Source: Escherichia phage vB_EcoP_EP32B
Strand: one strand, 5' to 3'
DNA length: 64,000 bases
Sequence record: OR544955
The position numbers were made by a program, and so were the translations under genes. Shown here piece after piece: positions 1-64,000 of this stretch; the first letter of the stretch is position 1, and every line of letters begins with the position of its first letter. The notes under the pieces were generated by a model. That model was not told the origin of the DNA. It ran no database searches and saw only the letters and a program-made list of their open reading frames with translations.

Positions 1-1
1 T

Positions 2-565
2 GAAACTAAATTTGCTGATAAATTTGCTTGTGAATTCAATAACCAAGTGAATATGCTTTTTAAACATTCACGTAAATTATTCACTGGCGGCGATGGCCGT
101 ACAAATAAAGTTCATGTTAAAGATTGGGTTACTGCAGTATTCAAACCAACTGGTAATGGTAACGCATCGTTATCAATTGATATCCAGGTTCCTTATTATT
201 ACTCACGTAATCTCGGTACCATGAAAGCCGAAGAAATTAATAAGCGCAACAAAACCATTCGTTCTCTGTCTTATAAACTTCGCATGATGTTACAGACTAT
301 GGATGTTGTTGAAATGTTCGACGAAACCGAAGATAACGGTTCAATGTTATTCAGTTCTCGAATTAAAATTAAACTGAAGAACCCTAATGTGTTTAAGCCT
401 ATTAAAGAACCTAAAGCAGAAAAGGTCGATATCATGGCCGAAGAACGCGAATATCTCAAATCTCGTCTGAAAGAAGTCGAAGCCCAGATTGCAGAACAAA
501 CTAAATCGTTAAAAGCTCTGAATGCGAAAGCGGACGGTTTACGAAATGCCATTGAGGTGTTATAA
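2..565 (+). CDS. hypothetical protein, probably 5-prime partial (frame open to window start), coiled-coil C-terminus
   Basis: ORF 47..565; no in-frame stop upstream to position 2. Confidence 0.45.
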   Translation, partial: ETKFADKFACEFNNQVNMLFKHSRKLFTGGDGRTNKVHVKDWVTAVFKPTGNGNASLSIDIQVPYYYSRNLGTMKAEEINKRNKTIRSLSYKLRMMLQTMDVVEMFDETEDNGSMLFSSRIKIKLKNPNVFKPIKEPKAEKVDIMAEEREYLKSRLKEVEAQIAEQTKSLKALNAKADGLRNAIEVL

Positions 566-870
566 TGAACCTACGTCTTCTAGAGGATATTGATATGAGC
601 ACTAATCATGGCTTGGTTAAGTTTATTGACGATAGTTCAAAGATTGAATTTGTTCAGCGAGATAAAATCCACGGTGAAGAAGAGTTCGTTCCTCCGGCAT
701 GGAACGAAATAATGAAAATGGTTGAACGACGTGAAAATGCTGCCAAATCGGCAGCAAAACATCCATGTCCGGAATGTGGAACTATCCAAGTCCAACTGGT
801 TAACTGGACCACTGATAACTTGAAATTGAAATGCCGTAAATGCTTCCACAAATTTGAGAGAACATTATAA
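565..870 (+). CDS. small zinc-ribbon protein (CPEC...CRKC)
   Basis: 101-aa ORF, ATGA start/stop overlap with upstream gene, two Cys pairs. Confidence 0.5.
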   Translation: MNLRLLEDIDMSTNHGLVKFIDDSSKIEFVQRDKIHGEEEFVPPAWNEIMKMVERRENAAKSAAKHPCPECGTIQVQLVNWTTDNLKLKCRKCFHKFERTL

Positions 871-1283
871 TGAGATATAGCCTTCGTTGTTTTATCGCAG
901 CTTTAGTTTTTGCCATCATTCCATTCATTTGGAACAGCCAGAATACTTACATGGAAACTAAAGTAATTCCTGTGGAGGTAGTGGAATTAATTTCAGGTCA
1001 ATCTACAGGAAAATATTCTAAATTGGAATTTATTGCAGTTTATAAAGATGAACAAGGTCGAGTTTTTGACAGGCATGTATCACCATCGTTTTATACGCTT
1101 CTTAATAAAGGTGATACGATAGCTATAGAAATTCGTGAGATGGATATCAAACAAACTACTAAAGATAACCTGATTTGGTTCTTTGGTACAGTGTTGATGT
1201 TCTCTATCGGTATCACAGGTTTTATTACATGCATTGTATTTGGTGTTGCATATTTAATCGATGAAAGGAAAAATAATGTTTAA
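870..1283 (+). CDS. membrane protein, N- and C-terminal hydrophobic segments
   Basis: 137-aa ORF coupled to neighbours. Confidence 0.5.
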   Translation: MRYSLRCFIAALVFAIIPFIWNSQNTYMETKVIPVEVVELISGQSTGKYSKLEFIAVYKDEQGRVFDRHVSPSFYTLLNKGDTIAIEIREMDIKQTTKDNLIWFFGTVLMFSIGITGFITCIVFGVAYLIDERKNNV

Positions 1284-1539
1284 AGTGTACGGGTATGACT
1301 CTACTATTCATAAATGCATTTATTGCGATAATGCGAAACGATTGCTGACTGTTAAGAAACAGCCATTCGAATTCATTAATGTTATGCCAGAAAAAGGTGT
1401 GTTCGATGATGAGAAAATTGCTGAGCTTCTGGTTAAGCTTGGCCGTGAATCACAAGTCGGATTGACTATGCCTCAAGTGTTTGCTCCTGATGGAACTTCG
1501 ATCGGTGGCTTTGACCAACTACGAGAATATTTTAAATGA
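1276..1539 (+). CDS. nrdC: glutaredoxin/thioredoxin NrdC
   Basis: MFKVYGYDS..CIYCDNAKRLL..GGFDQLREYFK, recalled T4 NrdC match; CxxC active site; RBS GAAAGGA. Confidence 0.9.
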   Translation: MFKVYGYDSTIHKCIYCDNAKRLLTVKKQPFEFINVMPEKGVFDDEKIAELLVKLGRESQVGLTMPQVFAPDGTSIGGFDQLREYFK

Positions 1540-1676
1540 CAATGGTTACCATTACCGTTGAAGAATATAATCGCCTGCAAGCCATTGAAGAGCTTCTTTG
1601 GGAAATTGAATCTGATTTGCCATCTGGGCTAGAATCCTGGGTTGATTATGAAGAGATCAATAAGCTCCGCGGTTAA
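1536..1676 (+). CDS. small hypothetical protein (46 aa)
   Basis: ATG overlaps nrdC stop (ATGA). Confidence 0.3.
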   Translation: MTMVTITVEEYNRLQAIEELLWEIESDLPSGLESWVDYEEINKLRG

Positions 1677-2390: not shown

Positions 2391-2429
2391 GTAATAAATA
2401 CCCTTATCTATTTAAGGTAAGGGTTTATC

Positions 2430-5512: not shown

Positions 5513-5821
5513 ATGATTAGTTTTGAGATTGAAATTTATGGCATCCCTGAAGAAGTAGGACGTTGTCCAGGATGTTATACTGTTACAAAACTTTTAAAGG
5601 AACTCAATGCTCCTTATACATTTTATAAAGTCCTCACTAATAATGGTAAGATTGAATATGACCGTCCTTTAATCGTATCTCTTGCTAAACGTGCAGGATT
5701 CACTTCACTTAATATTCGTTATCCTGTCATATTTTTAAATGGTAAGAAACAAAAGAATATTGCAGAGTTTAAAAAGTCCTTGATTTCATTAGGATACGAC
5801 TCTGATATCATAGAAGATTGA
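5513..5821 (+). CDS. nrdH: glutaredoxin-like protein NrdH
   Basis: 102 aa, CPGC redox motif, position after nrdG. Confidence 0.8.
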   Translation: MISFEIEIYGIPEEVGRCPGCYTVTKLLKELNAPYTFYKVLTNNGKIEYDRPLIVSLAKRAGFTSLNIRYPVIFLNGKKQKNIAEFKKSLISLGYDSDIIED

Positions 5822-6170: not shown

Positions 6171-6394
6171 TTAGTTTAGATTCAAAGAAAGTTGTTCTAA
6201 CCCTTAAAGTTAATGCGATTTGCATGTTGAAATTGCTAATGGCGTTCGTACTTATCAAGCAAATAAAACTCATTGGGATTATATCCCGATGTTGACGCTT
6301 ACTCAGCGTTTAGAATCAATCGGTCTTAAAGACCTTTCAGTAAGTGAAGTGAATTTTATCAAACGCGTTGTATCAATCAACCTCTGAGGTACTT

Positions 6395-6556
6395 ATGGGT
6401 AAAACGTATCGTCGTAAAGATTTGAAAGTTCGCGATTATGACTATTTTGGTAAACGTAAAGCTCCTGACGGTGTTAGCCACAAAGACATGGTTGAAAACA
6501 TATTCCGCTCTGATAAATGGAAGCGTATGAAAGGCGTTGATTCTGAAGTCAAATGA
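6395..6556 (+). CDS. hypothetical protein
   Basis: ATG preceded by GAGGTACTT. Confidence 0.4.
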   Translation: MGKTYRRKDLKVRDYDYFGKRKAPDGVSHKDMVENIFRSDKWKRMKGVDSEVK

Positions 6557-7951: not shown

Positions 7952-8217
7952 AATTAACTCGAATCAGTATAACTGAAGAAAAGCTGGGCGAATTTTATGT
8001 TGACGAATACATGAAAGTTACGTATTTTCCATTCGTTAAAGGTGTTGGTTTTTGGGAAACTCATGTATCTCAATTAAACGAAGGCGACTATAACGAAACA
8101 CATGAGAACTTTTTAGATTTTCTTTATAATGCCGGTCTTACTGAGCTTTATATCGATATCCATGAGTTCAAACGTTTAATGGAAAAAGTGTTTCAGGCTT
8201 ATTGTTTGCTCCGATAG
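7948..8217 (+). CDS. hypothetical protein
   Basis: ATGA-coupled ORF. Confidence 0.5.
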   Translation: MKLTRISITEEKLGEFYVDEYMKVTYFPFVKGVGFWETHVSQLNEGDYNETHENFLDFLYNAGLTELYIDIHEFKRLMEKVFQAYCLLR

Positions 8218-11109: not shown

Positions 11110-11317
11110 TTATGAAATCCATCGTCATGAATTTAGTATTGGTGACGGTTATATTGGTATAGTTTTATGAGGAGACAACTCCTCGTTTCTTTGGAACCAT
11201 GTATGTTACTTGTGAGTACGCACCAGGTGTTGTTATGTATGCAGAACTAGATGAATATTTTGCTGATAGAGATGACATGTTAAAATATGTAGAGGACTTC
11301 ATTCGAAGAGAATACAT

Positions 11318-12880
11318 ATGAAATCATTTAAATTAAATCGTGTTCGTTATCAAAACATCATGTCAGTAGGTGGGAATCCTATTGATATCCAATTAGATAA
11401 AGTCCAAAAGACATTAATCACTGGTAAAAATGGCGGTGGTAAATCTACGATGTTAGAAGCCATTACTTTCGGACTTTTCGGTAAACCATTTCGTGATGTT
11501 AAGAAAGGACAAATCATTAATAGCATGAACAAGAAAGAGCTCTTAGTTGAGCTTTGGATGGAATTCGATGATAAAAAATACTTCATTAAACGTGGCCAAA
11601 AGCCCAATATTTTCGAAATCTCCGTTGACGGTGTTCGTCTCGATGAATCTGCCAGCAGTCGTGACTTCCAAGAAGAATTTGAACGTAGCATCGGAATGTC
11701 ATACGCGTCTTTTAAACAAATCGTTGTGCTTGGGACGGCAGGGTATACCCCTTTCATGGCTCTTAGCACCCCTGCTCGTAGAAAGCTTGTTGAAGACTTA
11801 TTAGAAGTTGGCACACTCGCTGAAATGGATAAAATCAATAAGTCTCAAGTTCGCGAACTTAATTCTCAGGGACAAGTTCTTGATGCCAAGAAAGATGGTA
11901 TTATCCAACAAATTAAGATTTATAACGAGAATATCGAACGTCAAAAGAAATTATCTGGTGATAATGTAGCGCGTCTACAGAATATGTATGACGACCTAGC
12001 CAAAGAAGCTCGGTCATTAAAAGCAGAAATCGAAGAAGCTAATGAGCGACTACTTAATATCGTTCTTGATGAAGACCCTACTGAGGCATTCAACAAGATA
12101 GGACAAGAAGCATTCTTGATTAAATCTAAAATTGACTCATATAACAAAGTTATTAAGATGTATCATGATGGCGGTACATGTCCTACTTGTGCATCACAGT
12201 TGCACCAGGGTGACCCTATTGTCTCTAAGATTACCGATAAGCTTCATGAATGTAATCACTCATTCGAGCAACTTACATGTCACAGAGATAATCTGAGTGT
12301 CCTAGTGGACGAATATAGAGCTAATGTCAAGACTAAACAGGACCTTGCATCTGATATTCGTACCAAGAAACAAGCAATGATTGCCACTATTGATAAAGCT
12401 AAGAAAGTTAAAGCTGCAATAGAACAAGCCTCAGCAGAATTTATCGACCATGCCGATGAGATAGCTTTGCTTCAAAAAGAACTTGATAAAATCATTAAAA
12501 CAAAATCGGATATCGTTCTTGAAAAATACCATCGTGGTATTATCACAGATATGTTAAAAGATTCTGGTATTAAAGGTGCTATCATTAAAAAATATGTGCC
12601 TCTGTTCAACAAGCAGATTAACCATTATCTTAAAATCATGGAAGCTGATTACGTGTTTTCTATTGACGAAGAATTCAATGAATCTATAAAATCACGTGGC
12701 CGTGAAGAGTTCAGTTATGCTTCATTTAGTCAAGGCGAAAAAGCGCGTATCGATATCGCATTGTTGTTTACATGGCGAGATATTGCTGAAAAGGTCTCTG
12801 GTGTTAAAATCAACACAACGTGTTCATTATTTCTCACAGAGACCATGACCCACAAGCTTATGGACAACATCTTCAAATGA
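11318..12880 (+). CDS. 46: recombination ATPase gp46 (Rad50/SbcC-like); C-terminus disrupted, H-loop segment continues in another frame to 12918
   Basis: Walker A GKNGGGKST, zinc hook CPTC, signature SQGEKARIDIAL; no Walker B in frame; VFIISHRDHDPQ in other frame. Confidence 0.85.
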   Translation: MKSFKLNRVRYQNIMSVGGNPIDIQLDKVQKTLITGKNGGGKSTMLEAITFGLFGKPFRDVKKGQIINSMNKKELLVELWMEFDDKKYFIKRGQKPNIFEISVDGVRLDESASSRDFQEEFERSIGMSYASFKQIVVLGTAGYTPFMALSTPARRKLVEDLLEVGTLAEMDKINKSQVRELNSQGQVLDAKKDGIIQQIKIYNENIERQKKLSGDNVARLQNMYDDLAKEARSLKAEIEEANERLLNIVLDEDPTEAFNKIGQEAFLIKSKIDSYNKVIKMYHDGGTCPTCASQLHQGDPIVSKITDKLHECNHSFEQLTCHRDNLSVLVDEYRANVKTKQDLASDIRTKKQAMIATIDKAKKVKAAIEQASAEFIDHADEIALLQKELDKIIKTKSDIVLEKYHRGIITDMLKDSGIKGAIIKKYVPLFNKQINHYLKIMEADYVFSIDEEFNESIKSRGREEFSYASFSQGEKARIDIALLFTWRDIAEKVSGVKINTTCSLFLTETMTHKLMDNIFK

Positions 12881-13632: not shown

Positions 13633-14319
13633 ATGAAACTGTCTAAAGATACTATCGCTATTCTGAAAAACTTTGCCTCTATTAACTCAGGCATTCTGCT
13701 GAGTCAAGGTAAATTTATTATGACTCGTGCAGTTAATGGCACCACTTATGCGGAAGCAAATATCTCTGATGAAATTGATTTTGACGTAGCACTTTATGAT
13801 TTGAATAGCTTCTTAAGCATTTTGAGTCTAGTGTCTGATGATGCTGAAATTTCAATGCACACCGATGGCAATATTAAAATTGCAGACACACGTTCCACAG
13901 TTTATTGGCCTGCCGCTGACAAGAGCACCATTGTTTTTCCTAATAAGCCAATTCAATTCCCAGTGGCTTCTGTGATTACTGAAATTAAAGCTGAAGACCT
14001 TCAACAATTGCTTCGAGTTTCACGTGGTCTTCAGATTGATACAATTGCTATTACAAATAAAGATGGTAAAATTGTTATCAACGGCTATAATAAAGTTGAA
14101 GATTCCGGACTAACTCGTCCTAAGTATTCTTTGACTCTTACCGATTATGATGGCTCTAATAACTTTAACTTTGTAATCAATATGGCTAATATGAAAATCC
14201 AGCCAGGTAACTATAAAGTAATGTTGTGGGGAGCTGGTGATAAAGTTGCAGCTAAGTTTGAAAGCTCTCAAGTAAGTTATGTTATTGCAATGGAAGCCGA
14301 TTCTACTCACGACTTCTAA
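13633..14319 (+). CDS. 45: sliding clamp gp45
   Basis: 228 aa, MKLSKDTIAILKNFASINSGI...ADSTHDF, recalled T4 gp45 match. Confidence 0.95.
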   Translation: MKLSKDTIAILKNFASINSGILLSQGKFIMTRAVNGTTYAEANISDEIDFDVALYDLNSFLSILSLVSDDAEISMHTDGNIKIADTRSTVYWPAADKSTIVFPNKPIQFPVASVITEIKAEDLQQLLRVSRGLQIDTIAITNKDGKIVINGYNKVEDSGLTRPKYSLTLTDYDGSNNFNFVINMANMKIQPGNYKVMLWGAGDKVAAKFESSQVSYVIAMEADSTHDF

Positions 14320-14394
14320 GACAAAGATTTACGTTTAATGTGATACGATTATGGAGGAGAAATCCTCCAGTTTAATGATAATGAGGAAAATTAC

Positions 14395-15357
14395 ATGATT
14401 ACTATCAATTCCAAAGAACACATTCTAGAACAGAAATATCGTCCTTCTTCCATTGACGAATGTATTCTGCCTGCGTATGACCATGAAACATTCAAGTCTT
14501 TAGTATCTAAAGGAAAACTTCCTCATATTATTTTACACTCTCCATCTCCTGGTACCGGTAAAACCACCGTGGCAAAAGCATTATGTAATGATATCAACGC
14601 TGAAATGATGTTTGTCAACGGTTCTGATTGTAAAATTGATTTTGTACGCGGTCCGTTAACTGCATTTGCTCGTTCAGTCTCAATGGAAGGCAAGCCTAAA
14701 GTTATTGTTATTGATGAATTTGACCGTAGTGGCCTCGCCGAATCACAACGTCACCTTCGTACGTTTATGGAAGAATTCTCTAGTAACTGCTCTATTGTTA
14801 TTACTGCTAACAACATTGATGGAATTATTGAACCATTACGTAGCCGTTGTCGAGTTATAGAATTCGGTCGTCCGACTGAAGAAGATAAAATCTCGATGAT
14901 GAAGAAAATGATTCATCGTATGGTTGAAATCTGTAAGAATGAAAATATCGAAATCGCTGATATGAAAGTTGTTGCAGCTCTGGTTAAAAAGAACTTCCCG
15001 GACTTTCGTCGTACAATTGGTCAATTAGACCAGTACTCGTCTAAAGGTGTTCTTGATGCAGGTATTTTGTCTATCGTAACTAATGACCGTGGCACAGTCT
15101 CTGATGTTATCGAAGCAATGAAGAACAAAGATATCAAACAACTTCGTGCATTAGCTCCAAAATATGCTGCAGATTATTCATGGTTCATCGATAAATTAGT
15201 TTCAGAATGTTATGACCAAGTTGCACCTGGTAAAAGTATTATTTCGCTTTATGAAATTGCAGGCGAAAATAATAAGTTTCATGGATTAGCAAGTAATATT
15301 GAATTACATGTTATGTATATGCTTCTTCAACTGACCTGCGAACTGACTTGGAAATAA
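14395..15357 (+). CDS. 44: clamp loader large subunit gp44 (AAA+)
   Basis: Walker A GTGKTT, Walker [12 protein letters not shown] motif. Confidence 0.95.
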
Positions 15358-16374: not shown

Positions 16375-19059
16375 ATGAAAGAATTTTACTTAACGGTTGA
16401 ACAGATTGGTGATTCAATTTTTGAACGTTACATCGATTCTAATGGCCGTGAACGTACTCGTGAAGTAGAATATAAACCATCACTGTTTGCTCATTGTCCA
16501 GAAAGTCAGGCTACGAAATATTTCGATATCTACGGTAAGCCGTGTACTCGTAAGTTGTTCGCTAATATGCGTGATGCCTCCCAATGGATTAAACGTATGG
16601 AAGATATCGGACTTGAAGCACTTGGCATGGACGATTTCAAATTGGCGTATTTGTCTGACACTTATAACTATGAAATCAAATACGACCATACAAAAATTCG
16701 TGTGGCTAACTTCGACATCGAAGTAACATCTCCGGACGGGTTCCCTGAGCCGTCACAAGCAAAACATCCGATTGATGCTATCACCCATTATGACTCAATT
16801 GACGACAGGTTCTACGTATTTGATCTATTGAATTCTCCATATGGTAATGTAGAAGAATGGTCTATCGAAATTGCAGCTAAGCTTCAAGAACAAGGTGGTG
16901 ATGAAGTTCCATCCGAAATTATCGATAAAATCATTTATATGCCGTTCGATAACGAAAAAGAATTGTTGATGGAATATCTCAACTTCTGGCAACAGAAAAC
17001 TCCTGTCATTTTGACTGGATGGAACGTTGAGTCATTTGATATTCCATATGTGTATAACCGAATCAAGAATATTTTTGGCGAATCTACTGCGAAACGTTTA
17101 TCACCACATCGTAAAACTCGTGTTAAAGTTATCGAAAACATGTATGGTTCTCGTGAAATCATTACATTGTTCGGTATCTCTGTTCTTGATTATATTGACC
17201 TTTACAAAAAATTCTCTTTTACCAATCAACCGTCGTATTCTCTGGATTACATTTCAGAATTTGAATTGAACGTTGGTAAACTGAAATACGACGGTCCTAT
17301 TTCTAAACTTCGTTATAACATCATCGACGTATATCGTGTATTGCAAATTGATGCTAAACGCCAGTTCATTAACTTGAGTTTGGACATGGGTTATTATGCT
17401 AAGATACAGATTCAATCTGTGTTTAGCCCAATTAAAACATGGGATGCTATTATTTTTAATAGCCTTAAAGAACAAAACAAGGTGATTCCACAAGGTCGTT
17501 CGCATCCAGTTCAACCTTACCCGGGTGCTTTTGTTAAGGAACCTATTCCAAATCGATACAAATATGTAATGAGTTTCGACCTTACATCTCTGTATCCAAG
17601 TATTATTCGCCAAGTGAATATTAGCCCGGAAACAATAGCAGGAACGTTTAAAGTAGCTCCACTGCATGATTATATTAACGCAATCGCTGAACGTCCTTCA
17701 GATGTGTACAGTTGCTCTCCTAACGGCATGATGTATTATAAAGACCGTGACGGTGTTGTTCCAACTGAAATCACTAAGGTCTTTAATCAACGTAAAGAAC
17801 ATAAAGGTTATATGCTTGCAGCTCAACGTAATGGTGAAATAATTAAAGAGGCATTGCATAATCCTAATCTTTCTGTTGACGAACCATTAGATGTTGATTA
17901 TCGTTTCGACTTCAGCGATGAGATTAAAGAAAAGATTAAAAAGTTGTCTGCTAAATCTCTTAATGAAATGTTGTTTAGAGCTCAACGTACTGAAGTTGCA
18001 GGTATGACTGCACAGATTAACCGTAAATTGCTTATCAACTCACTTTATGGTGCACTTGGAAACGTTTGGTTCCGTTATTATGATTTGCGTAATGCTACTG
18101 CAATCACAACATTCGGACAAATGGCTTTACAGTGGATTGAACGTAAAGTTAATGAATATCTGAATGAAGTTTGCGGTACAGAAGGTGAAGCTTTCGTTCT
18201 TTATGGTGATACAGACTCTATTTACGTATCTGCTGATAAAATTATCGATAAGGTTGGTGAATCTAAATTCCGTGATACCAACCATTGGGTAGACTTCTTA
18301 GATAAGTTCGCTCGTGAACGTATGGAACCTGCTATTGATAGAGGTTTCCGTGAAATGTGCGAATACATGAATAATAAGCAACATTTGATGTTCATGGACC
18401 GAGAAGCTATCGCTGGTCCTCCGCTCGGTTCTAAAGGTATTGGTGGATTTTGGACTGGTAAGAAACGTTATGCATTAAACGTGTGGGATATGGAAGGTAC
18501 TCGTTACGCTGAGCCTAAACTCAAAATCATGGGTCTAGAGACTCAGAAATCTTCGACACCTAAAGCAGTACAGAAAGCTCTTAAAGAATGTATTCGTCGT
18601 ATGCTTCAAGAAGGTGAAGAATCATTACAAGAATATTTTAAAGAGTTTGAAAAAGAATTCCGTCAATTGAATTATATTAGCATCGCGTCGGTATCTTCTG
18701 CGAATAACATTGCTAAATATGATGTCGGTGGATTCCCTGGCCCCAAATGTCCGTTCCATATTCGTGGAATTCTGACATATAACCGAGCTATCAAAGGTAA
18801 TATCGATGCACCGCAAGTTGTAGAAGGTGAAAAAGTATATGTTCTGCCTTTACGTGAAGGAAACCCATTCGGTGATAAATGTATCGCATGGCCTTCTGGT
18901 ACGGAAATCACTGATTTAATCAAAGATGATGTACTTCATTGGATGGACTACACGGTTCTCCTTGAGAAGACATTTATTAAACCACTTGAAGGATTCACAT
19001 CAGCAGCTAAACTCGATTACGAGAAGAAAGCATCTCTGTTCGATATGTTTGATTTTTGA
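16375..19059 (+). CDS. 43: DNA polymerase gp43 (family B, RB69-type numbering)
   Basis: 894 aa; Exo I FDIE (D114/E116), D222, YGDTDS, KILINSLYG; strong match to recalled RB69 gp43. Confidence 0.97.
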   Translation: MKEFYLTVEQIGDSIFERYIDSNGRERTREVEYKPSLFAHCPESQATKYFDIYGKPCTRKLFANMRDASQWIKRMEDIGLEALGMDDFKLAYLSDTYNYEIKYDHTKIRVANFDIEVTSPDGFPEPSQAKHPIDAITHYDSIDDRFYVFDLLNSPYGNVEEWSIEIAAKLQEQGGDEVPSEIIDKIIYMPFDNEKELLMEYLNFWQQKTPVILTGWNVESFDIPYVYNRIKNIFGESTAKRLSPHRKTRVKVIENMYGSREIITLFGISVLDYIDLYKKFSFTNQPSYSLDYISEFELNVGKLKYDGPISKLRYNIIDVYRVLQIDAKRQFINLSLDMGYYAKIQIQSVFSPIKTWDAIIFNSLKEQNKVIPQGRSHPVQPYPGAFVKEPIPNRYKYVMSFDLTSLYPSIIRQVNISPETIAGTFKVAPLHDYINAIAERPSDVYSCSPNGMMYYKDRDGVVPTEITKVFNQRKEHKGYMLAAQRNGEIIKEALHNPNLSVDEPLDVDYRFDFSDEIKEKIKKLSAKSLNEMLFRAQRTEVAGMTAQINRKLLINSLYGALGNVWFRYYDLRNATAITTFGQMALQWIERKVNEYLNEVCGTEGEAFVLYGDTDSIYVSADKIIDKVGESKFRDTNHWVDFLDKFARERMEPAIDRGFREMCEYMNNKQHLMFMDREAIAGPPLGSKGIGGFWTGKKRYALNVWDMEGTRYAEPKLKIMGLETQKSSTPKAVQKALKECIRRMLQEGEESLQEYFKEFEKEFRQLNYISIASVSSANNIAKYDVGGFPGPKCPFHIRGILTYNRAIKGNIDAPQVVEGEKVYVLPLREGNPFGDKCIAWPSGTEITDLIKDDVLHWMDYTVLLEKTFIKPLEGFTSAAKLDYEKKASLFDMFDF

Positions 19060-19099: not shown

Positions 19100-19408
19100 A
19101 TGAAAACTACTCCTATTACTATCGCTATTGACGCAATCATAAAACAAGCTTCTTCTTTGGCCGCTATGGCCAAAGTAATTAGTCAAAACCCTGCTCGTTA
19201 TAATGCTATTCTAGAAACTCTTCGACGCCCTGGACTGAGTAATTATGAAAGTCGTGTAATTATTACAGGTGTTGGTAAGAACGCTAATATCGCAACTAAA
19301 GCTTCCGAGACATTTGCTTCACTCGGTATCCCGAGTATGTACTTGAACACTGGGCATTATTCTCACGGTGATGCAGGATTCATTGCGCCTAATGAGGCAT
19401 CGCGGTAG
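19100..19408 (+). CDS. KdsD/GutQ-like SIS-domain sugar-phosphate isomerase, N-terminal part (gene frameshifted, continues 19396-19575)
   Basis: ITGVGKNANIATK..TFASLGIPS..HGD; downstream frame has LAPTMSTT and HPGGALG. Confidence 0.6.
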   Translation: MKTTPITIAIDAIIKQASSLAAMAKVISQNPARYNAILETLRRPGLSNYESRVIITGVGKNANIATKASETFASLGIPSMYLNTGHYSHGDAGFIAPNEASR

Positions 19409-19575
19409 AGGTTGATGAGAATTCTCTGGCTCCGACAATGTCTACTACATTGTTGTTAGCGCTTATCGATACGTTCGCTATCAACCTTTCGTCTGAACGT
19501 GGATTTACCTCTAATGATTTCCTTAAGTTCCATCCAGGCGGTGCACTAGGTGCCATGTTACGAGGCGAACAATGA
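19396..19575 (+). pseudogene. C-terminal segment of the SIS isomerase in the -1 frame
   Basis: open frame from 19396 encoding GIAVEVDENSLAPTMSTT...GFTSNDFLKFHPGGALG, no start codon. Confidence 0.55.
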
Positions 19576-19715
19576 AAGCAATAACAATAGGACTTTTACT
19601 ATTGATGCTTGTCATGACTATCTACTGGAGCTTAACGGCTCCGGTAATGATTCCAACACTTGTAATTGGATGGATTATGATTGGACTACAAGCAAAGTAT
19701 GAATGCTTTAACTAG
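19572..19715 (+). CDS. small membrane protein (47 aa)
   Basis: ATGA overlap, hydrophobic. Confidence 0.4.
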   Translation: MKAITIGLLLLMLVMTIYWSLTAPVMIPTLVIGWIMIGLQAKYECFN

Positions 19716-29382: not shown

Positions 29383-29633
29383 GCAAATTAACTAAGGTTA
29401 CTTTTATCGGTTGGTTTAAAAGCGGTGAGATGTTCACTAAAGATATCATGTTATCAGGTGATCGCGAAGAAATCGAGTGGGTTACGGTACAACTTGCTGA
29501 AGTGAACAAAGCATTAGTTAAAGCGTTTGTTAATGACGAGAAAGTTTTTGAAGCTGATTTCAAGTTTAAAATAGCTGTTTACAAGCCCCACATATTGTGT
29601 TACTATCTTTCTATCAACTACAGAGGAAATTGA
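29379..29633 (+). CDS. hypothetical protein
   Basis: ATGA coupling. Confidence 0.45.
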   Translation: MSKLTKVTFIGWFKSGEMFTKDIMLSGDREEIEWVTVQLAEVNKALVKAFVNDEKVFEADFKFKIAVYKPHILCYYLSINYRGN

Positions 29634-30671: not shown

Positions 30672-31088
30672 ATGATTTATTATATGCACAAAAATGCGCC
30701 ATTTAAATATGGTAAATTTCCTAATGCACAATGTTATAATATAACGCCTAATGAAAATAATAACGGATACCATCTCGGTGTAATTTTTGTAATTGTTAAA
30801 GATAACGAAATCGTTGCCTGGGCAGATTTTAAAGGTACAACATATGATGTTAATCCTGTGCCTTTCACATATTATAATTTAATGGATTTGGCATATGATT
30901 ATAATTGGTTTAATCATGAAGGATTTGACATCTCTTATTCTAGCTATTCATTATGTCCTATGAGCCGAGCTCACGGTAAAGATGTATCATATCTTTCAAT
31001 TCGGAAACGTGTAAACTTCAAACGTAGTACAGAGTATGTTGGTGGACTCTTTGTTAAAGATAATAAAATAACATTAGTTATCCTCTAA
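30672..31088 (+). CDS. hypothetical protein; reading frame appears to continue in -1 frame to about 31294
   Basis: 138-aa ORF; adjacent start-less open frame 31067-31294. Confidence 0.4.
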   Translation: MIYYMHKNAPFKYGKFPNAQCYNITPNENNNGYHLGVIFVIVKDNEIVAWADFKGTTYDVNPVPFTYYNLMDLAYDYNWFNHEGFDISYSSYSLCPMSRAHGKDVSYLSIRKRVNFKRSTEYVGGLFVKDNKITLVIL

Positions 31089-31295: not shown

Positions 31296-31481
31296 ATGAC
31301 TACTGCAATTTGCACTGGTTCTAAAATTAGTGTTTTTACAAGTTTTGAAGATTATGAAGTTGTTTCAAAACACCAATGCCATATTAGCGTAAAAGCTAAT
31401 GACGGTGTAATTTGGAATATTCCACAGTATGAAGGCACTACATATGAAGTCACAGATAAAGCAATCTTTGTAATTGATTAA
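31296..31481 (+). CDS. hypothetical protein
   Basis: 61-aa ORF. Confidence 0.4.
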   Translation: MTTAICTGSKISVFTSFEDYEVVSKHQCHISVKANDGVIWNIPQYEGTTYEVTDKAIFVID

Positions 31482-33313: not shown

Positions 33314-33628
33314 ATGGCGCACTTTAATGAATGTTCACAACTTATTTCTGGTGTTGATAAAGCAGAAGAAGCTTATTTTAATGCTCTGATTCACGAAGAT
33401 AAAGACCCACTTCAGGTAATGCTTGATATGCAGAAATCTTTACAGGTTCGTCTGGCAAATGACAAGCCTGAACATAACAAACATCCTGATGAATTGGCTA
33501 CTGCCGGTGATGTTGTTGATTGGCTGCGTAATCAGAAAGATTATATTGATGATGAATTCCGTGAACTGTTGACTTCACTTGGTGGTATGATTATAAATAC
33601 ACCTGTAATTAAACAACAAAGGAGTTAA
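33314..33628 (+). CDS. MazG-like all-alpha NTP pyrophosphatase (gene 56 dCTPase-like), possibly short
   Basis: 104 aa; DDEFRELL motif; position after 61. Confidence 0.45.
   Translation: MAHFNECSQLISGVDKAEEAYFNALIHEDKDPLQVMLDMQKSLQVRLANDKPEHNKHPDELATAGDVVDWLRNQKDYIDDEFRELLTSLGGMIINTPVIKQQRS
33592..33599 (+). promoter_or_regulatory. late promoter TATAAATA for soc
   Basis: exact TATAAATA about 32 nt upstream of soc ATG. Confidence 0.7.
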
Positions 33629-33630
33629 TT

Positions 33631-33774
33631 ATGGGTGGTTATGTAAACATCAAAACCTTTACGCATCCTGCTGGTGAAGGCAAAGAAGTTAAAGGTATGG
33701 AAGTTTCTGTACCGTTTGAGATTTATTCAAACGAACATCGGATTGCTGATTCTCATTACCAAGTAAGTGGTTAA
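33631..33774 (+). CDS. soc: small outer capsid protein Soc, short form (47 aa)
   Basis: MGGYVNIKTF..EVSVPFEIYSNEHRIADSHYQ resembles recalled T4/RB69 Soc N-terminal half. Confidence 0.6.
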   Translation: MGGYVNIKTFTHPAGEGKEVKGMEVSVPFEIYSNEHRIADSHYQVSG

Positions 33775-36046: not shown

Positions 36047-36505
36047 ATGCCCGGATTATCAAGATTAAGTGCAATTGTTCGTAGAAATTGGTCGTCTTCT
36101 GTTCCTGAGACAATGTATCGTGGAATCTCTAAGAAAACTATGGCCACACTCGATGATAAAGGTATTGGTAGTATTATTAAATTTGACAGAGTAATGAGCT
36201 TCAGCCCAGTGTTCGGTGTAGCACGTAACTTTGCTTCGTATAATTTTTACGGAACATTTAATATGTTCTGCATCAAAGATGCACCATTTGCTTTCAACTT
36301 CCGTGAACATATGCTTAACATGATTCTGGCTGCGCCATCTTGTGAGTTCAATGGAGCTTTCCCTGAAGCGACAAGACGGTCTAATGCTAGACTTATATCT
36401 GACGAATGTGAATTTATGCTCCCTATAGGGACTACACTGCGTGTAGATTCTATTATTCAAGATGGAAGTTATACAATCTGGAATCTGTCTATTGTCAGTT
36501 ACTGA
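36047..36505 (+). CDS. ADP-ribosyltransferase paralog; N-terminus apparently frameshifted (RBS and ATG at about 35994 in another frame)
   Basis: MYRG, SFSPV, ECEFML motifs; upstream 24-codon ORF with strong RBS ends at 36069. Confidence 0.55.
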   Translation: MPGLSRLSAIVRRNWSSSVPETMYRGISKKTMATLDDKGIGSIIKFDRVMSFSPVFGVARNFASYNFYGTFNMFCIKDAPFAFNFREHMLNMILAAPSCEFNGAFPEATRRSNARLISDECEFMLPIGTTLRVDSIIQDGSYTIWNLSIVSY

Positions 36506-45030: not shown

Positions 45031-45621
45031 ATGAAAGTTATGTTTATCCCATCTCGCGCAGTCCCATTTAATCCTGACCGTGTACAAGGTGGACTTGAAG
45101 CAGTACATTTAAATGTGTTGAAATATTTAGTTTCTATCGGTGCCGATATTGATTATATTGGTTTTGATAATGACACATTTGGTGATTGGAAGGTTAATCA
45201 TCATCCTGTTGGTCATCTGACTAAATTCAGTCTAGGTATGAGTTATACTATGGCCCGTAAGATTGTTGAACTAGCCGGCATCCATGAATACGATTTTGTT
45301 GTTACTATGGAACCGACTAAACTAACCGTCCAAGCAATTAAAGATGCTGGACTCTCTAAAGTTCATAAGAATTTTATGGCAACACCGTTTGAACCGGTAT
45401 CTCGTGGCATTGTTCAAATTTGGGACCAGACTATTCAAATTCATAAGAATGGTGGTAAGAGTTATGCTCCTACTAAAGCCTTCCGTGAATTTGAACGTAA
45501 ATATTGTTATATGACTTCAGGTCTGACTGACAAAATTGATTATGATTATTGGCGAGCAAATCCGTTGTTTGAAGCCGAAGATTATCCGGTTATTTGTTTG
45601 AATGAGAAACCTGAGATCTGA
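45031..45621 (+). CDS. GT-B-fold glycosyltransferase, N-terminal domain (gene split by frameshift)
   Basis: MKVMFIPSRAVPFNPDRVQGGLE..; ends NEKPEI. Confidence 0.55.
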   Translation: MKVMFIPSRAVPFNPDRVQGGLEAVHLNVLKYLVSIGADIDYIGFDNDTFGDWKVNHHPVGHLTKFSLGMSYTMARKIVELAGIHEYDFVVTMEPTKLTVQAIKDAGLSKVHKNFMATPFEPVSRGIVQIWDQTIQIHKNGGKSYAPTKAFREFERKYCYMTSGLTDKIDYDYWRANPLFEAEDYPVICLNEKPEI

Positions 45622-49935: not shown

Positions 49936-50399
49936 AATGAAGGTTAAGATCGCTGATACTGCTCGGTACTCGTTGACAAATAAAAGAAGACGTTGTTCGA
50001 CGTTGTAAGGTTGCAATCTTTGCAGAGTATGTAGTAGCAAATTGGCTAGATGGATATGTTAATAAAGGTAATGAAGACGTAGAAGACCCGTACACGTATG
50101 CATGGGACGTTTTAGCTCATCCTAAGTACTGTGGTCTACGCGTAGAAGTAAAGACCCATCAGATGGATTCGAAATGGATTTCGGTTACCACAGGATACAG
50201 TGGTGATTATCCGGGTGGTAATGGAATCAATATAGGGCCCTTCTTGAACCATCGAGTCGCAGATTGCATTATTATATTAGATGTCAAAGAAACCTCACCT
50301 GACGTCTTCTCTTATTCTATAAAGTTCGTGGGAGACCATGAAGACCTAAAGAAAATCGTCCGTAAGAGCAACTACAACGGGTGGTATCTTCATCTTTAA
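49936..50399 (+). pseudogene. interrupted ORF: 23-codon start segment (49936-50007) plus start-less open frame 49977-50399 (possible DenB-position nuclease)
   Basis: 62 codons of open frame with no ATG/GTG/TTG before M at 50163. Confidence 0.4.
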
Positions 50400-54535: not shown

Positions 54536-54623
54536 AATCATTTAAAGAACGTTTAGAAATGAAGTTCCTGAAATCTGTTGGCAAACTCTGGTTATTCCTG
54601 GAGTTCGTCATTACTCTAAAGAT

Positions 54624-54818: not shown

Positions 54819-55099
54819 TGAATATTAAACAACTCCAGAAAGATGCTATTGAATCACGTATCCAAGATATCAAACGCCTGAATGCTATGATGGAAGAAAA
54901 TTATGGTATGTATGCTAATCAGCCTGGTTGGGATGCTTTAGACCATCCTTATTTGGTTAATTTATGTAAAGGTGATACGTTAGCAATTATTCGTGATGGG
55001 TTAAAACCTTTCTTGCGAGACATGTATATTAAAATGAACGAAGAAATTATTAGCTCGTTGCAATATCAATTAAGGAAATTAGATGATGAGAATAATTGA
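54818..55099 (+). CDS. hypothetical protein (Arn-like position)
   Basis: 93-aa ORF between motA and asiA. Confidence 0.4.
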   Translation: MNIKQLQKDAIESRIQDIKRLNAMMEENYGMYANQPGWDALDHPYLVNLCKGDTLAIIRDGLKPFLRDMYIKMNEEIISSLQYQLRKLDDENN

Positions 55100-55310
55100 T
55101 TCTAAAGCAGATTATTTTAATTCTGTTAATGATAAGAATAAAGCTTTAATTCGCCACTTTATTACTAAGATGGGTTATACTGACTCTAAAGATTTGAAAG
55201 AGCACATTATCGAATGTTCTGTGGCTAAAAAGTTTTCTTTCACAGACAAATGTTTAAACGAGGTTATAAATCATTATGAACAATCTTGTAGCAAAACACG
55301 ATTTCAATAA
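55083..55310 (+). CDS. hypothetical protein
   Basis: 75-aa ORF. Confidence 0.4.
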   Translation: MMRIIDSKADYFNSVNDKNKALIRHFITKMGYTDSKDLKEHIIECSVAKKFSFTDKCLNEVINHYEQSCSKTRFQ

Positions 55311-57408: not shown

Positions 57409-58992
57409 ATGCTAAACGAACGATATAGTTAAAAGCAACGTTTTTAACTGTGTTTTCTGTATTTCCTGTGGCATTTACAGTTATTGTATGTCCATGGGAA
57501 CCAATTGCAACAGTATGAGAATGAGCACCAATACCTACCGAATGGGTATGAGCGCCAATACCCACAGTATGAGCATGGTTACCCGTGGTACTTGTGGTTC
57601 CTGACCAAGAGTGTGTATGGTTACCTTCTGAAGAAGTTTTGGCTATATTCGACCCTGCAGTAGCACCGTTCACGGTTCCAGTGAATTTAGAGCACTATGG
57701 TTATGAGACTTAATACCATCTGCTTCTGTACTTAATACAGCACGCCCAGATGGTTTACCTTTAATCGTTTGCCCACGCATATCAGGCAGAGAGCCGGAAG
57801 GATACACCGCAGCTAACTTAGGATACAAGCCAGCATCAAATGTTTGACCTTCCATTATGGCATAACCTTCAGGAGGTGTATCAGTAGGCCATGGAATCGG
57901 AGCACCAATTGGGTAACTCGACACAATATCCGTCTTAAGGTTATTTATTGTGGTATTCAAGTTAGCAAAATTACCAGAACCGCCGGTGATATTACCATCA
58001 GTACCAATAATTGTCCTAATTGCATACGGTAATTAGGAGAAATGCGACTATGACTAGTTATAACAACAAGTTTATTATCATTATCAACGGTCACCATATT
58101 ACCGCCAGCACCATCATCACCTAACGTAACAGAATGGCGCATTTGAACCATACCGTTAATAGTGGTTCATTTTACCACCAGCATTGTACCCGATATGGGT
58201 TTGTCCGTCTCCAGCATTGTTATTATCAGCTTGTGTTTGAACCCTTGGTCTTCTGAACGTCCAAATATACCTTTACGAGTACTACGGAAACTGTCAGGAG
58301 TAATAGAAGCAACAGAATTCCAATTACCTACTAAATCATAAACTCCTTGCTTAATATATTTTAAGCCAGTAGCAGCATCCCCCAAAGCAATATATCTTTC
58401 TCCCATTGGAGTAGGAGAGCCGTAGTTATTGGTATTTTCGTCAGCAGTAATTGTGCCAATAGCAAGTGAACGACGTAATACCATTGCTCCATCATTACGA
58501 AGACCCATTAATTTAGTAGTAAGTATATTTCCGGTCCACCAAGAAATTTCATCATTCTTACCAGTTTGAGCTGAAGCGATTTCATGGTAAATAGTTCCGC
58601 CTGATTTAGCTCGAACTTTACGAAGATAGTTTATACCATTTTCTTCACCTGTTCCAGGATAAACATATTGAACTAATGACTGCGAATCGTATTGTCCAAA
58701 TGCTTTTGTGTCCAAAACAATGGTTTTCGTATTAACTTGCGGAGCAGAAACTATACCATTAGCGGAGTTAATATTGCCGGACGCAGAAATATTACCTGCG
58801 TTGAGTTACATTACCGTTAATATCCCCGCCCTTAGCAAAGCCTAGGCTAATAATATTACCGAGGTCATCTTTAGTAAAAAGAGTTCGATCTTTTAAGTTT
58901 ATCGCTAATTCGCCTTCGGCTAATTGTGCTGCAGTAGGATTAACTCCTGCTACTTTGCTTCTTTTAAATTGTATCTGTTTTAATGTAGCCAT
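57407..58992 (-). pseudogene. 37: distal tail fiber gene 37 (T4 type), reading frame broken into at least five segments
   Basis: N-term [13 protein letters not shown]; internal [23 protein letters not shown]; His-box C-term [22 protein letters not shown]; frame changes near 58790, 58235, 58155, 57670. Confidence 0.8.
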
Positions 58993-60856: not shown

Positions 60857-60864
60857 AATACCTC

Positions 60865-63800
60865 TTATTCAATCCACTCGAATTTAACAGATTTATTCAC
60901 AGGGTCTGGAATAATGCGGACATTACCAATCCTTAAGAAATCCCTTATTGTCAAGTTTCCGATTGTTGCATTATCAGAAGGTAAAGCACCAATATCAGAA
61001 GGTTGAGGAGGGTTTCCACCATCAAATACCTGAACAAAACTTGACCAAGAATTTTTAGTTTTCTGCCATGTACGAGTCCAACGGGTTGTACGTGCTTCTG
61101 GAGTTGTTGGATAAGTAATCCAATCTTGGTAAAGTGAATCAAGTGTGTTACCAAACTGAGTCAAAGTACCAGGAGATTTAACTTCTTCACCACGTTCTAA
61201 GTATGGAAGTCCAGACACTTCATTAGTTTTTTCAACCATTTTAAAATAACCCGGGAATTGGTTATAAGTGGCTGAATCGTTAATATCAATTGACCAGAAT
61301 CCTACATTATCAGATGTTGGCGCACGGGTATATAAATCGGATGTTTTAGTACCCTGAGAACGAATTCTCGAGTTAACAGTCAAACCGCCAGAATTTATAG
61401 TAGCACCATTGGCAATGATTAAGCCTTCACCAATTGTAATCTGACCGGATTGGTTATTAATTGATAATGGACGTAATCCATTAAATCCGCCAGTCTGATC
61501 ACCGGATGCGGTGATCATAAAATATGTGCTGCCGCCATCATTGCGAATAAAGAATCCATAATCACCACTAATTGCTCTAAATGCATTTGCAGACTTGCTA
61601 ATGAATTCGCCATTGGCTGTAACTGAACGACCAAATGTTGCAACGCCATTCGCATTTAACGTGCCTGAAGCGTTAACATTTATTGGCATCACAGTACCAT
61701 TAATGCTAAACGTTATATTCCCAGCTTTATTACGTTGAGAATAAAAGTGATTAGATGTTTCATCGCCAACTTCAAATACAGTAGAACGTGTTGTATCTGA
61801 ACCACCACCAAATTCATTTCCCCAAACTCTGATAGTTATCGTTTGAGCAGGATTTGTTCCAGTTTGAGGTCCTTTTTCAAAAATCAGACGAGTTGCTGTT
61901 CCAGTATTAGAAATAGTTAATGTACTATTTGCCGAAACTGAACCACCAAACGTAGCAGTACTAGATGATACAAGAGGGGCACTCAGATTCGTTTGCTGGG
62001 TTAAGGTTAGTGAACCATTAACCGTCTGTGCAATGTCCCTACGAATGAACTGAGATGAATCTAGGCCATCTAATAAATTACTATCTATGGCTTTTGCTTT
62101 TAATGGTAAATAGTTAGCAAGTACACGGTTTAATTCATATGGTGATATAGCATAGCTATTTTTTTCATATGATTCTAAAGGTTGTGTTGAACCAACTGTA
62201 TCATTACCAACAAATGTAATAGAACCGGATGAAGTTTTAACGAATCCGCGAATTGCCGTAGTAGCAGCCCATGTTGGTTCGTTCTGGACAATCCATTTTA
62301 AATTCTTAGGCGATACAGCAGTATTAGCAGAAGTTCCTGTTACAGTTTCAGCCCGAGTAGCAACCTTAATTACACCTTCAGACGTTTCAGTGGACTTAGT
62401 CCCTAAAAGCTTTTTAGGAGTAATAAGAACATCATCTAAAGTTCCTGCATTAGATTCTGCCTGAGTCGCTACGCGAAGTGTACCACGTTGTGTTTCATTT
62501 GCTTTAGAAATATCAAGAGTATAATGGTTCCACAAGGTTCCTTCTTCAATAAGTCCGGAATCAGAATTAACACTGGTACGGTCAGAAGAATCAAAATGAG
62601 TTTTAATTTTCAGTGGAGTCGAGATACGAGTATCATCAGTTCCAGTATCAAATTCAACTTGCGTAGCAATTTCGGCTATGCCGGATAATCCTTCCGTAGC
62701 TTTCCTATCATTTAACGTCTTAGGCGTTACTGCACGTGTATAATCAGTCCCAGCATTAGTTTCTACTTGCGTAGCAATTTCAATTAAACCAATACGTCCA
62801 TCAGTAGAAGTTTTCTTATGTAGTGTTTCAGGAGTTACTACAGCGTGAGAATAACCTGCTTGAGATTGTCCAGCAATTACTTCACTATCAACAGCTAAAA
62901 TTACTGCACCTTGTTGAGCATAAGTTGCTTTATATTGGTCAAGGGCTTTAGGAGAAATAGTTAAATTATTTACGGTTTTATTATAAACGTTAGTGCCTGC
63001 GGCCCCACGAGTTTCAGCAGGAGTAGCAGAAGTAGTTGATACATATTTAACTATACCAGATAGTGTTTCAGAACCCTGACGTGCCTGCAATTTCTTAGGT
63101 GTAATAATCGTTGTGTCATCAAGACCAGCATCGGTTTCAGCCTGAGTAGCAATTTCAGCAAGACCACGACGAGTTTCAGTTGCTGTACGCTCATTTAGTT
63201 TTTTAGGCGTAACAATAGTATCGTCAACGAATGTTGCTGTGGAATTCTGATTAACTTGTGCTGTTGTAGCAATTTTAGCGATACCACGTCGAGCTTCGGT
63301 TGCTGTACGATTTGCCAACGTTTCAGGAGTAATAGCCACTTCTTTAGCTGGAGTATTCTCTAAATCAACATTTGCTTGCGCTTGAGTAGCAAGAGCAATA
63401 ACACCTAAACGAGCTCGTGTAGCATCAGTTCCAGCATCAACACGTTCTACCGTAGGGACATTCTGTTGCACAACCCAATAATGAGTGTCGGAATCGGTGT
63501 CTTCAATATATGCTAATTCTAATACAGGAACATATGAAGTAGTGCCATTGAATTCTAGTTCAGTAACAGAGACCCATTGAGCATCAGGTGGATATTCAGA
63601 ACGTTTAGGGAACTGAAGCAATGCAACAGAAGAAGCAATTGTATCACCTTCGGCAGCTTTAATTTTTACTGTTTGGCCTTTACGCATGTAGTTCATTGAA
63701 ATTTTAACAGTGTCACCACTCAAAATTCCTGTAGGCAGCGTAAGATTAATAGTTCCGGTTGTAGCGTTATTTGTGCCAAAAATAAGAACTTCTTCATTTG

Positions 63801-64000
63801 GACGAATATTTGAATCCGCACGGATAATACGAAGACGTGATTTCTGATCGCCTTCCCATATACGCCATAAACTATTTGAAGCATCAAAAACAAAAAACGC
63901 GTCAGAGTCATTTCTGCCTTCGGCAATATGAGTCCCGACTTCACCAATAGACGTTGTATCATCAAATGTTTTAACAATTGTATGATACAGTGGGTTTAAT
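60865..64000 (-). CDS. 34: proximal long tail fiber protein gp34, 5-prime partial (runs off window end)
   Basis: frame open from 60865 to 64000; ..RIIRADSNIRPNEEVLIFGTNNATTGTINLTLPTGILSGDTVKISMNYMRKGQ.. to ..VKFEWIE. Confidence 0.95.
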   Translation of the reverse strand, partial: LNPLYHTIVKTFDDTTSIGEVGTHIAEGRNDSDAFFVFDASNSLWRIWEGDQKSRLRIIRADSNIRPNEEVLIFGTNNATTGTINLTLPTGILSGDTVKISMNYMRKGQTVKIKAAEGDTIASSVALLQFPKRSEYPPDAQWVSVTELEFNGTTSYVPVLELAYIEDTDSDTHYWVVQQNVPTVERVDAGTDATRARLGVIALATQAQANVDLENTPAKEVAITPETLANRTATEARRGIAKIATTAQVNQNSTATFVDDTIVTPKKLNERTATETRRGLAEIATQAETDAGLDDTTIITPKKLQARQGSETLSGIVKYVSTTSATPAETRGAAGTNVYNKTVNNLTISPKALDQYKATYAQQGAVILAVDSEVIAGQSQAGYSHAVVTPETLHKKTSTDGRIGLIEIATQVETNAGTDYTRAVTPKTLNDRKATEGLSGIAEIATQVEFDTGTDDTRISTPLKIKTHFDSSDRTSVNSDSGLIEEGTLWNHYTLDISKANETQRGTLRVATQAESNAGTLDDVLITPKKLLGTKSTETSEGVIKVATRAETVTGTSANTAVSPKNLKWIVQNEPTWAATTAIRGFVKTSSGSITFVGNDTVGSTQPLESYEKNSYAISPYELNRVLANYLPLKAKAIDSNLLDGLDSSQFIRRDIAQTVNGSLTLTQQTNLSAPLVSSSTATFGGSVSANSTLTISNTGTATRLIFEKGPQTGTNPAQTITIRVWGNEFGGGSDTTRSTVFEVGDETSNHFYSQRNKAGNITFSINGTVMPINVNASGTLNANGVATFGRSVTANGEFISKSANAFRAISGDYGFFIRNDGGSTYFMITASGDQTGGFNGLRPLSINNQSGQITIGEGLIIANGATINSGGLTVNSRIRSQGTKTSDLYTRAPTSDNVGFWSIDINDSATYNQFPGYFKMVEKTNEVSGLPYLERGEEVKSPGTLTQFGNTLDSLYQDWITYPTTPEARTTRWTRTWQKTKNSWSSFVQVFDGGNPPQPSDIGALPSDNATIGNLTIRDFLRIGNVRIIPDPVNKSVKFEWIE

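Follow-up and report, generated by a model that had tools for sequence, protein, structure and literature searches.

The stretch examined here, referred to below as the window, comprises 64,000 nucleotides (nt) of the record of Escherichia phage vB_EcoP_EP32B (OR544955), and the subject of this report is a series of internal segments that are missing from its conserved genes. Three parts of the window were searched by megablast against 50,697 phage records. Mosigvirus (RB69-like T-even) genomes were the sole matches of all three parts, the best being the E. coli O157 typing phages 3, 6, and 13 at about 98% identity. For each part, the matched stretch of the relative was longer than the query (26,022 versus 25,000 nt, 25,823 versus 24,976 nt, and 15,869 versus 14,000 nt). 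The genes stand in the standard order, with 49, nrdD ... 46, 45, 44, 62, regA, 43 ... uvsX, 41, and 61 followed by dda ... 39, rIIA, rIIB ... 52, motA ... t, 38, 37, 36, 35, and part of 34. The window is colinear throughout with O157 typing phage 3 (phage 3 hereafter; 98.1% identity over aligned positions) and RB69 (96.9%). By its gene order, and by an identity of at least about 95%, the window is a segment of a Mosigvirus genome.

The main comparison was a MAFFT global alignment of the window with phage 3 (NC_041863.1:100500-168733). It contained 35 gap events, among them 29 internal deletions in the window and four insertions of 1-3 nt. A four-way alignment of the window, phage 3, p000y, and mobillu was used to sort private from shared events, and the flanks of the junctions were compared in a panel consisting of phage 3, phage 6, p000y, mobillu, RB69, NRG-P0074, and AV109, six NCBI genomes with an exact gp61 match, a genome from IMG/VR, three metagenome contigs, and OCHD01000040.1. 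The window has 24 private deletions of 2-722 nt, together 3,562 nt, which are absent from every relative examined, and three private insertions that add up to 4 nt. The private deletions of three real relatives in the same region number 1, 5, and 9 (3, 38, and 81 nt). All of the window aligns to phage 3, and it is devoid of N. The junctions, each named in the text by its right-hand base, are as follows (ORF, open reading frame; aa, amino acids).

1539..1540, plus strand: 216 nt gone, in frame, from the ORF 3' of the nrdC-like thioredoxin gene, reduced from 118 aa (phage 3) to 46 aa.
5525..5526, plus strand: 298 nt gone, taking out the body of the RB69ORF082c homologue together with 28 nt from the start of nrdH.
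6215..6216, plus strand: 28 nt gone; frameshift in a DUF7290 ORF (RB69ORF079c homologue).
6551..6552, plus strand: 2 nt gone; frameshift in a DUF5499 ORF (gp55.5 homologue).
11164..11165, plus strand: 14 nt gone; frameshift in gp46.1 (DUF5487).
12816..12817, plus strand: 88 nt gone from gene 46 (Rad50-like nuclease subunit); frameshift, with the ORF stopping at 12880.
17312..17313, plus strand: 27 nt gone, in frame, from gene 43 (DNA polymerase); residues E314-S322.
19394..19395, plus strand: 160 nt gone; frameshift in the SIS domain of a KpsF/GutQ-like arabinose-5-phosphate isomerase.
29560..29561, plus strand: 4 nt gone relative to phage 3 and about 206 nt relative to RB69.
30919..30920, plus strand: 24 nt gone, in frame, from gp61.2 (AdfA, anti-DarT factor).
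31072..31073, plus strand: 4 nt gone; frameshift in the gp61.2/AdfA ORF that is also hit at 30920.
31457..31458, plus strand: 12 nt gone, in frame, from the RB69ORF033c homologue.
33589..33590, plus strand: 594 nt gone relative to phage 3, namely the last 246 nt of gene 56 (dCTPase), the whole of soc.2, and most of soc.1.
33761..33762, plus strand: 93 nt gone, in frame, from soc, reduced from 78 to 47 aa.
36064..36065, plus strand: 97 nt gone; frameshift in modA (ADP-ribosyltransferase).
45614..45615, plus strand: 16 nt gone; frameshift in the RB69ORF003c homologue (366 aa).
49976..49977, plus strand: 14 nt gone; frameshift in denB (endonuclease IV).
54557..54584, plus strand: two junctions in one 153-aa ORF of the arn region, with 94 nt gone at 54558 and 81 nt at 54584.
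57690..58801, minus strand: five junctions in gene 37 (distal long tail fibre), at 57691, 58010, 58158, 58243, and 58801, with losses of 247, 334, 722, 43, and 350 nt.

A reading made earlier from the sequence only (the sequence-only reading) had claimed that at least nine loci were disrupted, and the alignment to phage 3 places a gap at or within a few bases of every one of them. The loci given as about 11160, 12810-12840, 17310, and 19400 correspond to junctions 11165, 12817, 17313 (in frame, as proposed), and 19395; that at 31070 corresponds to 31073 together with 30920, and those at 33745, 36050, 45615, and 49940-50010 to 33762 (in frame), 36065, 45615, and 49977. The "several" disruptions announced for gene 37 are the five junctions listed. 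Nine junctions, 1540, 5526, 6216, 6552, 29561, 31458, 33590, 54558, and 54584, come in addition. The alignment to a close reference, proposed as a check in that reading, turned out to be colinear but with indels at all the named positions.

The DNA on either side of these junctions is separated by the same distance in nearly all relatives as in phage 3. In gene 46, ten loci share a spacing of 88 nt. The spacing is 14 nt at 11165 in seven relatives, 28 nt at 6216 in all six relatives with both flanks, and 160, 93, and 16 nt at 19395, 33762, and 45615, respectively, in six relatives each. The 2 nt missing at 6552 are retained by all seven relatives, the 4 nt at 31073 by all six, and the 27 nt of gene 43 by all relatives; taken alone, 6552 could be a simple sequencing error. 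When the 24 junctions were sought in about 16 related genomes and contigs, the two flanks were adjacent in none. Exact searches of viral, metagenome, and genome contigs with junction probes and window-specific probes only returned relatives that contain the missing DNA, such as OCHD01000040.1, and no exact match on record was found for the truncated gp46 or for the intact gp62 and gp52 proteins. A BLAST search of phage records with concatenated 60-nt junction blocks at E = 1e-10 returned nothing, a result whose sensitivity was not backed by a positive control: at E = 1e-5 half-matches were joined and swamped the table, and the intended control had no shared junction.

Five further indels in the window are ordinary natural variation, because they are shared with other phages:

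2391..2392, plus strand: 188 nt (two mini-ORFs after pinA) absent, as is also the case in mobillu and NRG-P0074.
5275: 4 nt.
5928: 1 nt.
33802 and 49613: 2 nt each, in T-runs.

Natural variation of this kind, in the form of alternative alleles circulating among Mosigviruses, might be thought to account for the 24 private gaps as well, the more so as presence/absence polymorphisms of ORF082c, gene 61.4, and soc.1/soc.2 are common in these phages. None of the 24 junctions occurs in any relative examined, however, and 17 of them put conserved ORFs out of frame. Natural short alleles, where there are any, have a junction other than that of the window. ORF082c is naturally absent from at least 19 Mosigvirus records, all with a junction unlike that of the window, in which the first 13 nt of ORF082c are fused to nrdH in a hybrid matching no natural allele (a chimeric ORF of 102 aa at 5513-5821); junction 5526 was therefore rejected as a natural allele. 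Compared with relatives naturally devoid of soc.1 and soc.2, about 250 nt are missing at 33590. The chance that the private gaps are natural alleles is thus judged to be minimal.

The T-run indels at 33802 and 49613 belong to a set of terminator-like hairpins (window 9783, 33802, 49613, and 53462; for example GGAATCCTTCGGGATTCC followed by a T-run) that vary by 1-2 nt in the T-run or loop between phages. These changes are the only differences of the homopolymer type in the window. Homopolymer sequencing error was rejected as the cause of the private gaps, which are blocks of 2-722 nt outside runs, while the T-run differences are shared with relatives; the sequence-only reading had likewise held that homopolymer errors alone could not explain the pattern.

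The private deletions are incompatible with a working phage. Genes 37, 43, 46, and 56 are essential in T4, as established by T4 genetics, and all four are struck. Gene 46 loses the Walker B stretch LILDEVFDG. The gap in gene 43 sits directly before the YNIIDV (Exo III) motif of a polymerase that is otherwise identical to RB69 gp43 in 893 of 894 residues. Gene 56 is short of its last 82 codons, and gene 37 has lost 1,696 of 3,282 nt and is left as five ORF fragments. With four essential genes damaged, a phage with the sequence of the window could not propagate. Yet the rest of the sequence shows strong purifying selection, as in a working phage. Among 460 private substitutions, 360 are synonymous and 68 non-synonymous, none creates a stop codon, and 84% of those in coding sequence fall at third codon positions. 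The private substitutions of phage 3 (263 synonymous to 67 non-synonymous) occur in matching proportions.

These observations bear on the proposal that the deletions are real and that the sequence stems from a defective, engineered, or decaying lineage. Pseudogenes and prophage remnants in decay typically show a bias towards deletion, which the window shares; moreover, soc, modA, denB, and the small ORFs, which are among the genes hit, are dispensable. Apart from the loss of four T4-essential genes, though, drift over a time sufficient for 24 neutral deletions would be expected to leave signs of relaxed selection, and neither these nor nonsense substitutions are seen. Seven of the 24 deletion lengths are divisible by 3, which is the chance rate. 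Microhomology amounts to 0-3 nt at every junction and no longer direct repeats were found at the deletion ends, by which slippage or microhomology-mediated deletion was rejected as a mechanism. No match was obtained in 5,426 E. coli genomes or plasmids, so that no resident remnant exists there, and mutation has no reason to start and stop at sites that vary in other phages (see below). Real deletions in such a lineage, one of three causes offered in the sequence-only reading, are accordingly considered very unlikely.

The placement of the deletions was analysed in relation to divergence, using a panel of 15 relatives for the divergence and boundary tests. Columns that are variable among the relatives make up 27.6% of the deleted DNA and 6.4% of the region (a value reached in 0 of 5,000 permutations); without gene 37, the enrichment was matched in 81 of 5,000 permutations. 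For the most divergent relative, divergence in the deleted blocks was far above that in random blocks. When phage 3 was compared with p000y, mobillu, and one metagenome contig set, 5 of 12, 7 of 12, and 11 of 18 strongly divergent 30-nt patches, respectively, were located inside deleted DNA, which represents 5% of the sequence.

The same relation is visible at individual sites. The block missing at 1540 is a cassette that is wholly different in mobillu, to within about 2 nt at both ends. In gene 46, the missing block is a mosaic patch in which RB69 and phage 3 are only 58% identical, and the alleles of the window switch from phage-3-like to RB69-like across it. The block at 30920 is a small patch of 29-33% divergence in several relatives, with flanks of 5-6%, and that at 31458 is 42% divergent in five relatives, with flanks of 2-5%. 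The block at 36065 differs by 22-27% in p000y, mobillu, and L072, and its last deleted base is polymorphic. The 26-nt island retained between 54558 and 54584 is exactly the stretch that is identical in both allele types, while the missing blocks on either side of it are patches with a divergence of 35-38%. Presence/absence polymorphisms are involved as well. The flanks of 29561 are of the RB69 type and, compared with RB69, the window lacks gene 61.4, whose presence or absence is naturally polymorphic, and the stop codon of dmd, so that the dmd ORF reads through to 91 aa. The right edge at 33590 lies 2-3 nt from the natural presence/absence boundary of soc.1/soc.2. Gene 37 is the most mosaic gene of these phages. 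In F27, the homology blocks of this gene stop at positions 60788 and 62698 of phage 3, at 5-15 nt from two of the window junctions, which suggests that the boundaries of mosaic blocks in this gene recur across different phages.

The edges of the deletions follow the divergence closely. An edge contrast, defined as the divergence of the 12 nt just inside minus that of the 12 nt just outside, was 0.375 for the deletions of 29-594 nt, against 0.012 +/- 0.027 in permutations (0 of 2,000), and 0.131 for those of 12-28 nt, against 0.026 +/- 0.031 (5 of 2,000). A separate run of the edge statistic gave 0 of 3,000 permutations. At single-base resolution, the test covered the 19 private deletions that lie outside gene 37; polymorphic sites made up 12 of their first deleted bases (P = 5e-6), 14 of their second (P = 4e-8), and 11 of their last (P = 4e-5). 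The six retained bases on each side were polymorphic in 2-5 of the 19 cases each, at a background of 16.2%. The deletions are bounded by the first and last bases at which a divergent patch differs. With edges polymorphic in this manner, a local alignment or a maximal-match extension to another genome would leave precisely such blocks uncovered.

On this pattern, the gaps are best explained as an artefact of an alignment-dependent computational step applied to a real Mosigvirus genome, a reading to which a probability of about 0.78 is given. The sequence would have been built or filtered by alignment to one or more other genomes. Stretches that could not be aligned locally to the partner would have been omitted, or filled with N and then stripped, after which the flanking ends would have been joined. 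The most likely partner would be either the reference used to guide an assembly or, in a trimmed whole-genome alignment, the remaining rows, and the unalignable stretches would be divergent mosaic patches, allele cassettes, and segments present in one of the two sequences. Alignment-dependent construction of this sort would be the reason that the events are deletions only, that the base calls are clean, that frame and function are ignored, and that the edges are tied to polymorphism. The first of the causes offered in the sequence-only reading, an assembly with gaps removed, is thus upheld in substance by the deletions-only pattern, the clean edges, and the boundaries at polymorphic sites. The specific pipeline, and which sequence carried the variant allele at each patch, are inferred.

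Several observations weigh against this explanation. No single genome among the 15 panel members accounts for all 24 gaps, the best members explaining 5-11 of their own divergent patches. Two candidate partners were rejected: AV109 is without pinA, which the window keeps, and the homology blocks of F27 do not match the blocks retained in gene 37. Some gaps lie where the 15 relatives barely differ, namely the 27 nt of gene 43 (at most 11% divergent) and those at 11165, 45615, 31073, and 6552; these near-invariant gaps require either an unsampled allele or a second cause, for instance local loss of coverage. The retained 26-nt island is short for ordinary read mapping and favours trimming at the level of contigs or of a multiple alignment. 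The very clean edges would equally fit a deliberate, alignment-guided excision. Finally, the case is built on the letters of the window and of its relatives.

Loss of coverage could also be invoked for all the gaps. Positions left uncovered in an assembly of low or uneven depth, for reasons unrelated to divergence, would then have been dropped or stripped as N, and the link with variable regions would be incidental. Deletions-only events, the wide size range of 2-722 nt, and the gaps in well-conserved sequence (gene 43, 11165, 45615, and 31073) are in line with this. Random loss does not, however, predict an enrichment in divergent patches, boundaries that are precise to the base, or five gaps within one gene of 3.3 kb. 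At 39.1%, the GC content of the deleted DNA departs little from the 37.3% of the region, which also led to the rejection of composition bias as a cause. As a general explanation coverage loss is therefore improbable, although it may have contributed to a minority of the gaps. Misaligned read ends were discarded, as substitutions are not in excess within 5-20 nt of the junctions, and so was k-mer masking of host sequence, as the deleted DNA has only a weak similarity to E. coli (75% over about 120 nt, in prophage tail-fibre genes).

Deliberate or synthetic alteration, the third cause offered in the sequence-only reading, would mean that a person, or a generative or benchmarking procedure, had cut internal segments from a natural phage sequence. 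The junction edges are very clean, the source genome was present in none of the collections searched with junction and non-junction probes, and the truncated gp46 is not on record, all of which would suit such an origin. Planting in a uniformly random manner is rejected on three counts: the gaps cluster in gene 37, they are enriched in variable patches (0 of 5,000 permutations), and their boundaries land on polymorphic bases (P of about 1e-5 to 1e-8). An alignment-guided form does fit the edges, but the editor would have needed an alignment to other phages, which amounts to the explanation favoured here. Taken as a separate cause, deliberate alteration is no better than loss of coverage and is likewise improbable.

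A further scenario would have the junctions as real DNA, arising from mixed infection by two diverged Mosigviruses. Mismatch bubbles formed in heteroduplexes over mosaic patches would be cut by a structure-specific nuclease such as endonuclease VII and excised on both strands, leaving deletions bounded by the first and last mismatch, and the material sequenced would be a pool of non-viable recombination products. This possibility is considered extremely slight, and an alignment-dependent artefact remains the preferred explanation.

The significance of these gaps lies in data hygiene rather than in biology: they would be a property of how the record was constructed and constitute a caveat for other findings from the window. 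Phage 3 has 114 annotated genes in the corresponding region; the window carries 90 of them intact, and private deletions truncate, frameshift, or fuse 21. The warning given earlier that ORF calls at these loci cannot be trusted was justified. Spurious products include the false nrdH chimera at 5513-5821, the gene 56/soc.1 fusion, the read-through dmd, a "short" DNA polymerase, and a fragmented tail-fibre gene; pseudogenes, novel small ORFs, or unusual protein variants called at these loci would be equally spurious. The "glycosyltransferase" label given to the ORF at 45615 was not confirmed, as a Pfam search with the intact RB69ORF003c homologue yielded no match. The gp61.2 ORF after sp (broken at window 30672-31294, intact at L002:32178-32828) gives a full-length match to Pfam AdfA with E = 1e-119. 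Gap edges on bases that vary among relatives, next to retained bases that do not, offer a check that needs no reads and can be transferred to other records.

A number of other features of the window were noted in the course of the comparison. The rIIA protein (window 46421-48634, 737 aa) has all residues in common with that of phage LH01 (PP434429.1) and matches that of no other recorded contig. Over the rest of the window, LH01 shows no more than about 97% identity; it is not the origin of the window, and the identical rIIA may be taken as a sign of recent mosaic exchange. The ORF at 55083-55310 encodes 75 aa, versus 72 aa in phage 3, owing to a substituted stop codon in an indel-free stretch; this difference in length is natural variation. 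In the RB69 reference (NC_004928.1), three genes are annotated as split pairs for which the window and other Mosigviruses have one intact ORF each; that old reference may have frameshift errors of its own:

Window 19757-21442: GlmU-like protein of 561 aa, split into RB69ORF052c/053c in the RB69 record.
Window 24040-24939: protein of 299 aa, split into RB69ORF046c/047c in the RB69 record.
Window 34493-34957: mrh, 154 aa, split into RB69p022/p023 in the RB69 record.

The cluster at 19100-24040, which is kept in all Mosigvirus relatives examined, contains genes for SIS-domain arabinose-5-phosphate isomerase-like, GlmU-like nucleotidyltransferase, phosphoheptose-isomerase-like, U32 peptidase-like, and thymidylate-synthase-family proteins, the last being annotated as dCMP hydroxymethylase in p000y. 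The DNA of RB69 bears arabinosylated hydroxymethylcytosine, and the cluster may have a role in this modification. Insertions of the homing-endonuclease type stand beside genes 46, 47, nrdD, and 39 in several relatives, while the window and phage 3 are without them:

NRG-P0074 (L068): 13900-14754.
AV109 (L069): 31374-32195 and 24245-25048.
L055: 2125-2920.

When set against known systems, the gaps in the window resemble the homopolymer indel errors of 454, Ion Torrent, and nanopore sequencing in that both cause frameshifts, but such errors involve 1-2 nt within runs. With the decay of prophage remnants into pseudogenes the window shares its many deletions and few insertions; in contrast to such remnants, it shows neither relaxed selection nor nonsense changes, and its sequence was not found in the bacterial genomes searched. 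T-even phages, moreover, are strictly lytic. The location of the missing blocks at gene 37, the arn-region ORF, the gene 46 patch, soc.1/soc.2, gene 61.4, ORF082c, and the post-nrdC cassette is reminiscent of the mosaicism of T4-like phages. Natural mosaicism, however, swaps alleles or removes whole ORFs cleanly, whereas in the window nothing takes the place of the patch, and reading frames are disrupted.

Alignment trimmers remove blocks that are poorly alignable. The window resembles a trimmed or core whole-genome alignment in that it keeps short conserved islands and drops divergent cassettes and presence/absence segments with clean edges. Unlike a strict core alignment, the window holds 184 nt (8029-8212) that some relatives lack, as well as 12 and 21 nt that are absent from p000y; because it retains such segments, it is not the strict core of all known Mosigviruses. 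Common assembly packages have options to remove regions without coverage and to join the flanks, or to mask positions of low depth as N, which are then stripped. A standard short-read mapper would not be expected to keep a 26-nt island or to leave some of its gaps in conserved DNA, and the pipeline considered here is a presumed one. The closest likeness appears to be with a reference-guided consensus from which uncovered regions were removed: the window shows deletions only, no novel sequence, and a high base quality, and its gaps lie at locally unalignable stretches with their edges on the first and last mismatched base.

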